DNA of 5,142 bases from a plasmid, in sequence record NC_019185.1; one strand, 5' to 3'. A program made the translations under genes and the position numbers. How positions within the stretch are numbered: position 1 is the first letter of the stretch; every line of letters starts with the position of its first letter. Of the stretch, positions 1 to 5,142 are shown piece after piece. Under the pieces are notes generated by a model. That model saw nothing but the letters and a program-made list of their open reading frames with translations, had not been told where the DNA came from and did no database searches.

Positions 1-8
1 AAAAAACA

Positions 9-50
9 GGGCTGAAAGCCCAAAAAGAGCCGAAAGGCTCTATTTTTTTA
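9..50. terminator. Pair of adjacent GC hairpins forming a probable bidirectional intrinsic terminator at the replicon boundary
   Basis: gggctgaaagccc (9-21) and agagccgaaaggctct (26-41). Hairpin 2 is followed by tattttttta on the + strand. On the minus strand hairpin 1 is followed by tgtttttt (8-1). Confidence 0.5.
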
Positions 51-116
51 TATTTTATATTTTTATCTTGTTTTCGGATAGGCTAGAGCCTTTATTTGCA
101 AGGGTTGTGGATTTTA
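51..116. other. AT-rich putative DNA-unwinding region of oriV with a DnaA-box-like 9-mer
   Basis: Very AT-rich tract immediately upstream of the iterons. tgtggattt at 106-114 reads AAATCCACA on the minus strand, matching the TTATCCACA consensus at 7 of 9 positions. Confidence 0.4.
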
Positions 117-204
117 AATATGTAGAAATTTGTCGTTTAATATGTAGAAATTTGTCGTTTAATATGTAGAAATTTGTCGTTTAATATGTAGAAATTTGTC
201 GTTA
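117..204 (+). repeat. Four tandem 22-bp iterons (aatatgtagaaatttgtcgttt), Rep-binding direct repeats of oriV
   Basis: Exact 22-bp units at 117-138, 139-160 and 161-182. The fourth unit at 183-204 ends gtta. The 22-bp period is two helical turns. The units sit directly upstream of the rep gene. Confidence 0.85.
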
Positions 205-1539: not shown

Positions 1540-2841
<1,302 letters not shown>

Positions 2842-2988: not shown

Positions 2989-2993
2989 ATCCA
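2989..2993. repeat. 5-bp target-site duplication (atcca), right copy
   Basis: Matches 1388-1392. Both copies occupy the same codon phase of the interrupted ORF. Confidence 0.75.
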
Positions 2994-3152
2994 CAAGCTC
3001 CATTTTCTGATGATGAATTAAGACTAGGAGAAATTCATAATTTTATTTATGACAGTTCTCCTGATGATATTGATTTTAACTCTCTTTCAGAAGAAATTAT
3101 GAGCATAGACAGCAAATATAAGAGTCTTCCTATACTAGAACAGTATTTATAA
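2994..3152 (+). pseudogene. 3' fragment (52 codons plus stop) of the small ORF split by the bla element
   Basis: Open frame QAPFSDDELRLGEIHNFIYDSSPDDIDFNSLSEEIMSIDSKYKSLPILEQYL-stop. It is in phase with the 1312 ORF once the insertion is removed. There is no start codon of its own. Confidence 0.55.
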
Positions 3153-3342: not shown

Positions 3343-4614
3343 ATGAGCAAATTAGTCTGTAATTTCGATAAATATAAGGGCGTTCAGCTCTACGGAATGG
3401 ATATTCATATCCAACGGAAAACGGACAACCATTCAAACAAAGATATTGATTTAAGTCGCAAGCATTTGAATTATGAATTGGTAGCCGAACATCAAAACGA
3501 GCACTATTACACAAGGGCGAAAAACCGTATCGAACAGGGTTACACGGGAAAGAGAAAAATCCGTAAAGACGGAGTTTGGACTGGGAACGTAATCATTTCG
3601 TCTGATCAGGAATTTTTTAAAAAACTTACCCCGGAACAAGAACGGGAATTTTTTAAAACCGCATACGATTTCTATTGCGAAAAATACGGAAAAGAAAACG
3701 TAATTTCCGCTATGGTTCACAAAGACGAAACCACACCGCATTTACACTTGTTAATTGTACCTTTAACGAAAGACGGTAGATTATGTGCGAAAGAATTATT
3801 TGATAGGGAAGCACTCAGATCATTTCACGATATTATTGCAAAACGCCTACAACAACGTGGTTTTAATATCGAACGTGGCGAACGCAACGCAAAAGTAAAG
3901 CGAATAGAAACGGACGAGTACAAACGCTTGAAAAAAGATAATCAAGTAACCGTAAAAATAAATCCAAATGATACCGTTGCAACCGTTTTAGAAAAGAAAT
4001 TGATTGGTGCTGATGTTAAGGAAACGCCCGAACAGATCGCAAATCGATTAACTCAAAAATACGTTAAACCATTAACTGATGAATTAACGGATTTGAGAAC
4101 GGAAAAGGCATTATCCGAAAAGAGAAATGACGCTATAAAATACGCTAAAGCATTTTCCCAAAGCCGAGAAAATGAGTTTATAGCCCTGTACCACTCGTTG
4201 AAAGAATTTGGCGAAAAACACGTTTCTACCGCACTAGAAAAAATCCAAAACCTAGTATCGAAGTTAAATACCGAAAAACAAAAAGAGCGTGAACAGCGAG
4301 CTCTAGAAAGAGAAAAAGAGCTGAAAGAAAAACAGCGTAACAATCAATTTGCCCAGTACCGTGAACCAGATAGCCTGTATTCTGTGCTTGATTTTGGTAA
4401 AGCTCCGTATCAGTTTGAAGATAACGGAAAACCGTCTTATTACATTGCCGTACAAGCCCAAAATGAACGCCCAAAAATCTTATGGGGAACAGAATATCAA
4501 GATCAAATTCAAGCATTGAATATTCGTAATGGCGATATTGTGCGGTTAAATGGCTCTAAAATCGAGCGTGCTGAAGAAATTAACCATAAGGCAAGCAAAG
4601 GTGTGAAAATTTAA
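3343..4614 (+). CDS. mob: MobV-family (Mob_Pre, pMV158 MobM-like) plasmid mobilization relaxase, 423 aa
   Basis: N-terminus MSKLVCNFDKYKG…HSNKDIDLSRKHLNYEL. Motif I HIQR is present, with the His at residue 22 as in MobM. Motif III is VHKDETTPHLHLLIVP (HxDE…PHxH). There is a lysine- and glutamate-rich, probably coiled-coil, middle region. The ATG at 3343 is preferred over 3289 because the MobV N-terminus begins there and a G-rich RBS (gtgggggg) precedes it. Confidence 0.9.
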   Translation: MSKLVCNFDKYKGVQLYGMDIHIQRKTDNHSNKDIDLSRKHLNYELVAEHQNEHYYTRAKNRIEQGYTGKRKIRKDGVWTGNVIISSDQEFFKKLTPEQEREFFKTAYDFYCEKYGKENVISAMVHKDETTPHLHLLIVPLTKDGRLCAKELFDREALRSFHDIIAKRLQQRGFNIERGERNAKVKRIETDEYKRLKKDNQVTVKINPNDTVATVLEKKLIGADVKETPEQIANRLTQKYVKPLTDELTDLRTEKALSEKRNDAIKYAKAFSQSRENEFIALYHSLKEFGEKHVSTALEKIQNLVSKLNTEKQKEREQRALEREKELKEKQRNNQFAQYREPDSLYSVLDFGKAPYQFEDNGKPSYYIAVQAQNERPKILWGTEYQDQIQALNIRNGDIVRLNGSKIERAEEINHKASKGVKI

Positions 4615-4672: not shown

Positions 4673-4720
4673 AACCCTTAAAAAACTCAAAAAACCAGTT
4701 TTTGAGCTTTTTCAAGGGTT
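4673..4720 (+). terminator. Long imperfect hairpin with an inner stem ctcaaaaa/tttttgag (4686-4706), loop accag, followed by cttttt: probable mob terminator
   Basis: Outer arms aaccctt (4673-4679) / aagggtt (4714-4720). The T-run is at 4708-4712. Confidence 0.45.
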
Positions 4721-4776
4721 ATGAGACTTCGGATTTACGGTCGTTTTTCTGACAAAAAATAAAAAAAACAAGGGTC
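4709..4776 (+). repeat. Direct repeat copy A (~68 bp; core gggttatgagacttcNNatttNcggtcgtttttctgacaaaaaa)
   Basis: It aligns with 5089-5142 plus the first ~10 nt of the window, with 3 mismatches and small A-run length differences. Confidence 0.85.
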
Positions 4777-4799
4777 ACCAGTAGAACCAGTAACCCTTG
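4765..4799 (-). terminator. Intrinsic terminator for the minus-strand lipoprotein gene: hairpin caagggt…acccttg (4769-4799), followed on the minus strand by a long T tract (complement of the A-run 4751-4768)
   Basis: 7-bp stem with a 17-nt loop. The minus-strand reading is acccttg…caagggttttttttattttttgtcag. Confidence 0.5.
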
Positions 4800-4811
4800 A
4801 AAACTTAGCAT

Positions 4812-4949
4812 TTAGTCGCTACACTTAGTGCAACAACAATTAACGCATACGTTTTTTTGTTGAGTGTCGTTTAAACCGCGAGTGCTTGCGCATCCGGCAA
4901 GATACAGGCAAGCTCCCACGGTTAGAACGGTTTTAATGAGTGAACTCAT
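4812..4949 (-). CDS. Small cysteine-rich lipoprotein precursor, 45 aa (MSSLIKTVLTVGACLYLAG|CASTRGLNDTQQKNVCVNCCCTKCSD)
   Basis: ATG at 4949-4947 with the Shine-Dalgarno AGAGGA 7 nt upstream (complement of 4957-4962). Canonical type II signal peptide: n-region with Lys, hydrophobic core, lipobox LAG-C. The mature 26-aa peptide has 6 Cys. The longer ORF-track start (5048) lacks an RBS and would bury the signal peptide. Confidence 0.6.
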   Translation of the reverse strand: MSSLIKTVLTVGACLYLAGCASTRGLNDTQQKNVCVNCCCTKCSD

Positions 4950-4991
4950 TTCAACGTCCTCTGTTGCGGTTCTACCTCGAATTGAACGAAG

Positions 4992-5019
4992 TTGATAACA
5001 CATCAGGGGAGCTTGTCGA
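4992..5019 (-). promoter_or_regulatory. Candidate sigma70 promoter for the lipoprotein gene (minus strand: -35 tcgaca = complement of 5014-5019; 16-bp spacer; -10 tatcaa = complement of 4992-4997)
   Basis: Hexamers read by eye, with appropriate spacing to the RBS and ATG. The -35 lies in the loop of the 5006-5038 hairpin. Confidence 0.3.
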
Positions 5020-5038
5020 GGAACTAAATCAGCTCCCC
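5006..5038. other. 8-bp GC-rich inverted repeat ggggagct…agctcccc with a 17-nt loop, overlapping the candidate promoter
   Basis: Perfect 8-bp arms. There is no flanking T-run, so it is not a terminator. It could be an operator or protein-binding site. Confidence 0.4.
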
Positions 5039-5064
5039 CGACACCCAAAAATTATTTTATCAGA

Positions 5065-5095
5065 AACCGTCCACTTTGGGCGGTTTTGTTTTTAT
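5065..5095 (+). terminator. Intrinsic terminator (+ strand): aaccgtcc-acttt-gggcggtt hairpin followed by ttgtttttat
   Basis: 8-bp stem (one G-U pair) with a T-run after it. It is positionally equivalent to the hairpin that precedes repeat copy A. Confidence 0.5.
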
Positions 5096-5142
5096 GGGTT
5101 ATGAGACTTCAAATTTGCGGTCGTTTTTCTGACAAAAAAATA
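5089..5142 (+). repeat. Direct repeat copy B. Homology continues across the window end into positions 1 to ~10.
   Basis: See copy A. The run …ctgacaaaaaaata|aaaaaacaggg parallels …ctgacaaaaaataaaaaaaacaaggg. Confidence 0.85.

Follow-up and report, generated by a model that had tools for sequence, protein, structure and literature searches.

The described systems that come closest to the locus treated here are the Kil or bacteriocin-release lipoproteins (Lysis_col), the type I toxin-antitoxin modules such as hok/sok, the entericidins A and B, and the exclusion lipoproteins, with TrbK and Eex of IncP/IncN/IncW and MbeD/Exc of ColE1 as precedents. The locus is a cassette of NC_019185.1, whose 5142 bp, here called the window (the whole stretch of DNA that was analysed), form a complete small circular ampicillin-resistance plasmid of the Haemophilus type with Rep3, Mob_Pre and TEM-1 genes. 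The cassette region comprises the 812 bp from the stop codon of the relaxase gene (mob) to the initiator gene (rep), spanning the circular junction, and the cassette itself holds one open reading frame (ORF) only, for a predicted lipoprotein precursor of 45 residues. This gene is very probably real and undescribed.

Like the Kil lipoproteins, the cassette has a plasmid-borne prolipoprotein of ~45 residues with a mature part of ~26-28 residues, is found on a small mobilisable plasmid, and is proposed to share with them harm on over-expression. In contrast to them, it gives no Lysis_col match at E up to 10, has a Cys cluster that is absent from Kil proteins, is not part of a colicin operon, and has its own putative promoter, its own terminators and a predicted sequestered start. 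No bacteriocin gene occurs on any carrier plasmid; apart from small unknown ORFs, Rep, Mob and TEM-1 are all that the carriers encode.

The likeness to hok/sok is one of RNA design. In both, a tiny ORF with a hydrophobic N-terminus lies in a long folded mRNA, the Shine-Dalgarno (SD) sequence is buried and the 5' end pairs with a region further downstream (both by prediction in the cassette), an antisense RNA is encoded in cis and has a promoter and a terminator of its own (in the cassette as a candidate), and the whole is a compact, insulated, plasmid-borne unit of very high nucleotide conservation. The combination that marks type I toxins, an ORF of <60 aa with a stable folded mRNA and a sequestered ribosome-binding site, is found here as well (45 aa; z = -7.5). 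Unlike hok/sok, the cassette is predicted to specify a lipoprotein signal peptide that is cleaved off and a mature part that is polar and rich in Cys, and no membrane-spanning toxin, and its putative antisense RNA would span the whole mRNA (about 265 nt) and not a short 5' or 3' segment. Unlike type I modules in general, it matches no family, and its toxicity and antisense RNA are putative. No described precedent for a lipoprotein gene in a hok-like RNA architecture was found.

Entericidins A and B are small prolipoproteins (41-48 residues), proposed as bacteriolytic, and the ASTRG that follows the lipobox Cys of the cassette protein is reminiscent of what we take to be the entericidin motif after Cys, N-T-x-R-G, a lead only. 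The cassette protein differs from them: it has no Pfam entericidin match at E up to 10, it lacks the partner gene for an antidote lipoprotein, and its predicted C-terminal part is Cys-rich and not an amphipathic helix. With the exclusion lipoproteins it shares the state of a small plasmid lipoprotein linked to transfer genes; it differs from them in lacking Pfam/NCBIfam homology, in its regulatory anatomy, and in being carried by plasmids that encode a relaxase only and no mating channel. The first-pass annotation of this DNA had likened the product to the Kil, entericidin and exclusion families. No hidden Markov model of any of them matches it, and the resemblance is confined to size, lipidation and design.

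Searches with the 45-aa protein gave nothing significant in Pfam, NCBIfam, PHROGs or PADLOC. In hmmscan against Pfam-A at E up to 10 only Phage_lipoprotein appeared, at 14.5 bits against a cut-off of 27. With phmmer, 1.84 billion cluster representatives yielded a single matching cluster, P0001, an over-extended gene call that contains the second allele described below. A word-index protein search returned nothing for the 45-aa protein, and for P0001 only the query itself. The PDB sequence search and tblastn against phages gave noise only, a scan of IMG/VR found no cassette, and the best Rfam 15 scores at E up to 10 were 10-21 bits, all far under gathering scores.

The cassette and its lipoprotein gene

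The elements of the cassette are as follows.

4812-4949, minus strand: lipoprotein ORF, 45 codons plus stop, encoding MSSLIKTVLTVGACLYLAGCASTRGLNDTQQKNVCVNCCCTKCSD
4890-4901, minus strand: lipobox L-A-G-C, codons 17-20 (L17-A18-G19-C20), Cys20 being the predicted lipidated +1 residue
4821-4847, minus strand: Cys cluster C-V-N-C-C-C-T-K-C, codons 35-43
4957-4962, minus strand: SD sequence AGAGGA, 7 nt upstream of the ATG, predicted to be base-paired
4950-5047, minus strand: 5' untranslated leader of about 97-98 nt, with an 8-bp GC-rich hairpin GGGGAGCU/AGCUCCCC
5054-5062, minus strand: putative sense promoter, with -10 hexamer TAAAAT at 5059-5054, TG at 5062-5061 and no recognisable -35
4761-4799, minus strand: intrinsic terminator of the sense transcript from the terminator scan (stem 4799-4769 plus T run, 14-bp stem)
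5063-5097, plus strand: strong intrinsic terminator from the terminator scan (5063-5087 plus T run)
4797-4825, plus strand: antisense promoter-like site TTGAAA-17 nt-TACACT, overlapping the foot of the sense terminator and codons 42-44

The precursor is predicted to be made of a signal peptide (residues 1-19) and a 26-residue mature peptide with six Cys, CASTRGLNDTQQKNVCVNCCCTKCSD. The Cys lie at mature positions 1, 16, 19, 20, 21 and 24, as first reported. The signal peptide, which had been called 'textbook', passes the DOLOP-type rule ([LVI][ASTVI][GAS]C, with the Cys within position 15-35); it has Lys6 in the n-region and uncharged residues 7-19 as a 13-residue h-region (mean Kyte-Doolittle hydropathy 1.7), the charge criterion being a positive n-region plus an uncharged h-region of 7-22 residues. 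It fails the strict PROSITE PS51257-type pattern, as re-implemented here, at Tyr16 in position -4. An ATG-started ORF of 30-100 aa with both a lipobox and an SD sequence arose in 2 of 300 mononucleotide-shuffled plasmids. The AlphaFold2 model from the single sequence has two helices and is of low confidence and uninformative (pLDDT 66, pTM 0.34).

The 45-residue ORF is nested in a 78-aa, TTG-started ORF of the program-made ORF list. The ATG at 4949 is taken as the start because the sole indel in the leader, of 1 nt in the RepL-type carriers L003 and L004, destroys the in-frame upstream extension. The same indel rules out the N-terminally extended ORFs of 78 and 96 aa. Antisense ORFs of 43 and 54 aa were dropped, being without an SD sequence or other support. 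The 45-residue ORF is presumably translated.

The first-pass annotation described a self-contained minus-strand expression unit, and this is supported. Its SD sequence AGAGGA is confirmed at 4962-4957, before the ATG at 4949-4947, and both its own minus-strand terminator and the shielding plus-strand terminator are present in the terminator scan, which reports 2 sites in the window vs 0.8 expected in shuffles. The candidate minus-strand promoter is the weakest item: a sigma-70 scan finds none, and what stands is the -10-like TAAAAT preceded by TG. Three alleles were compared, those of the window, of L003 and of L006 (L005-L010 type); the TAAAAT hexamer is kept in all three and the TGn motif in two. 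In L003 and L006 the sense terminator is replaced by a diverged but functionally equivalent hairpin, and the plus-strand terminator keeps its position with compensatory changes.

In the published description of pA1209, a plasmid equal in length to the window (5142 bp), there are three ORFs only, i.e., rep, blaTEM-1 and a 'plasmid recombination enzyme' (PMC6992377). The PLSDB gene table of pLFH49 does not list the 45-residue ORF, a collection of 15 billion proteins contains neither its exact 45-aa sequence nor any of the extended versions that were tried, and automatic gene callers leave the cassette interval empty in ten further contigs. In these sources the gene has no described function. The literature and the gene tables (PLSDB for pLFH49, metagenome gene calls) give only rep, mob and bla, and a conserved fourth gene is present; the cassette is an example of a real small gene overlooked by automatic annotation.

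Spread among plasmids and allelic variation

Genome and metagenome scans detected the cassette on about twenty further contigs. Carriers that share the window's backbone, in some cases without the TEM segment, include L011-L016 and also pLFH49. Further carriers, of 2.83-3.06 kb, are RepL + Mob_Pre plasmids whose Mob_Pre genes are of three different kinds (L003/L017/L018, L004, and L005-L010), among them one from Haemophilus paraphrohaemolyticus and one from a Streptococcus-labelled bin, the latter probably a mis-binned plasmid. Similarity between the RepL-type plasmids and the window is limited to 4797-5093 or 4756-5094, and the cassette is therefore a module with an inheritance of its own. 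Copies of the ORF on other backbones show 100% nt identity, and on the RepL-type mini-plasmids the cassette is the sole accessory gene. It is a candidate for the factor that maintains these tiny plasmids in populations under no antibiotic selection, because it is the sole accessory gene on some 2.8-3.1-kb cryptic plasmids and moves between unrelated replicons.

The second allele, …NVCICCCTQCNN of L005-L010, is identical to the window from the leader start through codon 34 and differs in 10/36 of the last coding columns, keeping all five Cys of the cluster and the stop codon. Its changes are TGC->TGT (Cys, silent), ACT->ACC (Thr, silent), an in-frame 3-nt deletion, K->Q, S->N and D->N, and the Cys cluster becomes C-I-C-C-C-T-Q-C, with one synonymous Cys codon change. 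In a model of random substitution, a result of this kind has P about 0.01, and P about 0.001 when the indel is counted too. A homologue that conserves the lipobox and the Cys pattern, which the first-pass annotation expected of a real gene, thus exists in the form of this one variant allele. The variation in the ORF is that of a coding sequence.

The preserved Cys bear also on the view that the product is a thiol-rich periplasmic or outer-membrane peptide that binds Cu or Zn, or acts on the human host like a heat-stable enterotoxin. Five free Cys within nine residues, all conserved in the second allele, and a plasmid-borne, small and (by prediction) secreted peptide would suit it. However, no metallothionein, heavy-metal or enterotoxin family is matched, the low-confidence AlphaFold model (pLDDT 66) lends it no structure, nothing in the genetic context indicates metals, and the metal-binding idea is entirely conjectural. 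In the periplasm, which is oxidising, Cys are as a rule joined in disulfides, which counts against metal binding. We regard this function as very improbable.

The leader and codons 1-34 differ between alleles in 0-2/199 nt and the leader by itself in 0-2/97 nt, vs 16-26/~50 nt (30-50%) in the flanking terminators, which are still alignable; every synonymous site of codons 1-34 is invariant. Such an invariant core reflects either overlapping constraints (protein, RNA fold, antisense partner) or homogenisation by recombination.

Every intact copy of the cassette converges on the 3' end of mob, across four different mob genes. This arrangement speaks for a harmless surface or periplasmic lipoprotein that serves mobilisation, most likely in entry or surface exclusion or in interaction with the helper machinery, e.g., as a disulfide-locked ligand or decoy. 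Such a role would explain a position immediately downstream of a Mob_Pre gene in all intact copies, is in line with the truncation of the sole copy found on a backbone without a called mob gene (L019), and accords with the size and lipidation of the exclusion precedents. It is weakened by the lack of sequence similarity to exclusion families and by the fact that exclusion genes normally go with a mating-channel element, while the carriers encode no channel. A predicted sequestered SD/AUG with antisense transcription would, moreover, be ill-suited to a constantly needed protein. The mating attempt with pA1209 yielded no transconjugants (PMC6992377). We consider a service in mobilisation unlikely.

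L019 carries at 174-420 a decayed cassette on a pPN223-like backbone, with no mob among the called ORFs; its promoter, leader and codons 1-10 are deleted, and repeat 2 and the upstream terminator are kept. In L030 (4219-4749 onwards) the window's mob, direct repeat 1 and cassette are joined to a RepL-type backbone exactly at the upstream terminator of the cassette. Either a genuine cointegrate arose through the cassette that both have in common, or the assembly is chimeric here. The junction is not counted as evidence of recombination because a metagenome assembler can make such a junction at a shared segment of 300 bp.

Fold of the mRNA

The sense RNA 4765-5048 has a minimum free energy of -118 kcal/mol vs -75 for shuffles (z = -8.5). 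When the terminator is left out (4803-5048), the sense strand has z = -7.5 and the antisense strand z = -3.1, and for the ORF alone z = -5.0 and -1.6, respectively. A sliding scan of 150 nt places the lowest z-score of the plasmid in the cassette, on the minus strand. With DNA energy parameters the two strands are alike (z = -3.75 and -3.1), so the excess of the sense strand comes from G.U pairs, which make up 16/103 pairs of the predicted sense RNA fold. This excess speaks for selection acting on the sense RNA and not on hairpins of DNA. The SD sequence and the AUG are predicted to lie inside a two-tier hairpin of -11.8 kcal/mol, with an unpaired probability of 0.01 at the GGA core and <=0.2 at all SD/AUG positions but one (0.6, in the SD sequence), and the 5' end of the transcript (GGGUGUCG) is predicted to pair with codons 27-31. 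The first-pass annotation had omitted from its account of the cassette this strand-specific mRNA fold and the sequestered start, as well as the conserved antisense elements and the constant convergence with mob.

The same data could be read in favour of an RNA, sense, antisense or both, as the functional product, which would regulate some plasmid function, e.g., mob expression or the shielding of ori/rep against convergent transcription, with the ORF incidental or the RNA of dual function. The extreme and strand-specific fold would be expected in that case, and so would a 97-nt non-coding leader as invariant as the ORF and silent sites that do not vary through codon 34. In the L005-L010 allele, the 3' hairpin has three changes, all one-sided, and none of them breaks the pairing. 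On the other side, Rfam gives no match even at E up to 10, and a purely regulatory RNA would need neither a well-placed SD sequence nor a canonical signal peptide and lipobox. The change in the second allele is, moreover, of the coding type (in-frame indel, Cys and stop kept). A functional RNA is in our opinion a doubtful explanation.

Structured regions next to mob may also act as DNA. In pMV158-type plasmids, sso-/ssi-type elements adjoin mob, and the cassette could be a single-strand priming site of this type, converting the transferred or displaced strand to duplex, with a fortuitous ORF. The region is highly structured, its orientation to mob is fixed on every backbone, a RepL-type initiator is present in two of the backbone types, and the fold with DNA parameters still beats shuffles (z about -3 to -4). 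Against this, the strand-specific folding of DNA that a priming site calls for is not seen, the large excess being found only for the sense strand with RNA parameters (G.U pairs). The same cassette is also carried by an iteron plasmid of the Rep3 type, the unit comes with an SD sequence, an ORF, a -10 element and two transcription terminators of its own, and the coding-type constraint is left unaccounted for. A priming element is highly improbable.

Tiny ORFs with strongly folded mRNAs are found in related small Pasteurellaceae plasmids, too. Actinobacillus pleuropneumoniae pGD2107-2 (L002, 1480-1563, minus strand) has in the equivalent mob-ori interval a hydrophobic ORF of 27 residues, MPNWLKWLIVIAICLMLSGDTVQSFVR, with an mRNA z of -5.9, and pPN223 (L020, about 3866-3985, plus strand) has a hydrophobic ORF of 39 residues, MKTSEIITLILLLALLVGAISLKVLAILDLLISVLSKLA, with an mRNA z of -5.2, whose SD sequence is predicted to be paired with the 5'-terminal part of the leader. 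Both ORFs come with a strong SD sequence and with terminators on their flanks, and neither matches a known family. From these signals, they look like unannotated type-I-toxin-like genes.

Antisense elements

Scans of the window, L003 and L006 detect no terminator in the interval from the stop codon of mob to the cassette. The cassette's own terminator acts in one direction only, and a strong mob-strand terminator stands beyond the cassette (5063-5097). Transcripts of mob should therefore run antisense through the cassette. An additional start of antisense transcription is hypothesised at the internal site, of which the TTGAAA and TACACT hexamers are invariant in the three alleles, with several variable positions in the 17-nt spacer.

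Past the stop codon of mob (4614), the plus strand has a long AT-rich hairpin at 4673-4720; it is below the criteria of the terminator scan and is not a canonical terminator. It recurs in pGD2107-2 (L002, about 1339-1385) with compensatory changes, CCCTTAAAAAA/TTTTTCAAGGG vs CCCCGAAAA/CTTTCGGGG.

Proposed mechanism

From the observed anatomy, coding constraint, modular spread and conservation, and from the computed statistics of the RNA fold, we infer lipidation, a promoter and transcript ends, antisense control and toxicity, which could be combined as follows. The interval 4761-5097 is a real and autonomous cassette, in which a weak, -10-only promoter would give a transcript of about 285 nt. 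The 45-residue prolipoprotein would be processed by Lgt, LspA and Lnt to a triacylated, disulfide-rich peptide of 26 residues, and with Ala at +2 (E. coli +2 rule) this peptide would probably go to the outer membrane. The five remaining Cys may form disulfides, their odd number leaving one free for an intermolecular bond.

Two brakes may act on expression. The first would be the closed and very stable fold of the mRNA, hiding the SD sequence and the AUG and tying the 5' end to codons 27-31; the second would be antisense transcription of the whole unit, by read-through from mob or from the internal TTGAAA-17-TACACT promoter, with antisense transcripts ending at the strong plus-strand terminator, before ori and rep. 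The product would be harmful when freely made, and its synthesis would hence normally be kept very low. The plasmid could benefit if segregants that have lost it were killed or handicapped, or if the host were permeabilised. Such a cassette would be a selfish module similar to a type I toxin-antitoxin system, except that its toxin is a lipoprotein.

We prefer, tentatively, the reading that the product is a lipopeptide of the kil or toxin kind which acts on the envelope and is kept tightly repressed, with antisense transcription as a control; this reading may well prove wrong. Several points speak against it. No toxin, lysis or exclusion family is matched, and the predicted mature peptide differs from pore-forming type I toxins, entericidins and Kil proteins in being polar and in lacking amphipathic character. 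Strongly folded mRNAs occur for harmless abundant lipoproteins too, as in the case of the lpp mRNA. Outside the terminators there is no real covariation with the three alleles at hand. The antisense promoter-like site is a 9/12 match to the consensus, of which ~1 per region is expected by chance, and its TACACT overlaps a conserved Cys codon, which accounts for part of its conservation. Finally, the mosaic allele P0003 shows that recombination does occur, and the invariant core could stem from recent recombination, not selection.

A bolder form of the preferred reading sees in the cassette the first lipoprotein toxin run like a type I toxin-antitoxin system, silenced by its fold and by a mob-coupled, full-length antisense RNA, and passed on, as a selfish module for stabilisation or killing, among the small resistance plasmids and cryptic plasmids of human Haemophilus. 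We think this improbable.

Direct repeats around the cassette

The cassette was first described as a module bracketed by ~68-bp direct repeats.

4709-4773: direct repeat copy 1, its first bases being the 3' arm of the post-mob hairpin
5089-5142, continuing across the circular junction to 1-11: direct repeat copy 2

That length was close to what is found, the copies being ~65 nt each once the circle is closed (4709-4773 vs 5089-5142 + 1-11), and 4709-4759 and 5089-5139 are 90% identical. The module is borne out by its presence on otherwise unrelated backbones, but the repeats are not its ends: RepL-type copies, e.g., L003 and L006, have the cassette without flanking repeats, and the homology of RepL plasmids to the window stops at 4797 or 4756 and at 5093-5094, within the repeats. 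In L014 most of repeat 1 is replaced by another small gene, L019 and L030 have one repeat copy each (in L019 only repeat 2 is kept), and pPN223, with the same ori and rep, has neither cassette nor repeat. A relative with a single repeat and the cassette exactly deleted, which the first-pass annotation had suggested looking for, is not present among about 30 loci, including contigs with an identical relaxase, and no empty cassette site in the window's own backbone occurs among the loci with an identical Mob. The direct repeats belong to one backbone and not to the cassette. Their 90%-identical copies look to us like the scar of a recombination between two related plasmids, not a target duplication.

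A DNA-uptake signal sequence in the direct repeat was considered and dropped, the plasmid having no exact Hin-type or Apl-type signal and one-mismatch matches at chance level.

Plasmid setting

The other features of the plasmid are as follows.

114-210: iterons, four and a half copies of 22 bp each
284-1276: Rep3-type initiator gene (rep)
1540-2400, minus strand: TEM-1 gene, inside a Tn3-derived segment
3343-4614: Mob_Pre/MobV relaxase gene (mob)

The window and Haemophilus influenzae pLFH49 are 98-100% identical throughout, except around the transposon, and the pA1209/pLFH49 family is a vehicle of TEM-1 in Haemophilus influenzae and H. parainfluenzae. This plasmid family is very common among sequenced samples, since 1193 indexed blocks of the public assembly collection contain the exact relaxase of the window (423 aa). 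The ori-proximal part of the window (1-120) matches ~90 PLSDB plasmids at 80-90% identity, including Actinobacillus, Glaesserella and Pasteurella plasmids and penicillinase plasmids of Neisseria gonorrhoeae.

The ends of the TEM-1 segment (1393-2988) are two inverted copies of the right end of Tn3, which together make a perfect inverted repeat of 346 bp (1393-1738 / 2643-2988) with the 3' end of bla duplicated in it, and the segment is flanked by a 5-bp direct duplication, ATCCA (1388-1392 and 2989-2993). From the two inverted right ends and the ATCCA duplication, it looks like a two-right-end transposition product. The segment splits a small ORF (MCTLMQKDSLIH…), found in the window at 1312-1392 + 2989-3151, which is intact in pPN223 (L020, 1323-1583) and annotated there as hypothetical. 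Relatives of this ORF are of 68 aa on RepL plasmids (L003, 625-831) and of 79 aa in L014 (575-814), and it belongs to no Pfam family.

Directly upstream of blaTEM-1, in the promoter region, the window has a 54-bp tandem duplication (2411-2518), perfect but for one position. It resembles what we take to be the repeat-type TEM promoter variant of Haemophilus. In L023 (GCA_003493105.1, contig QQKZ01000004.1, 206,835 bp), the whole plasmid with the cassette lies between two copies of bla, an arrangement that suggests integration in a chromosome or an integrative and conjugative element (ICE) via recombination across the Tn3/TEM segment.

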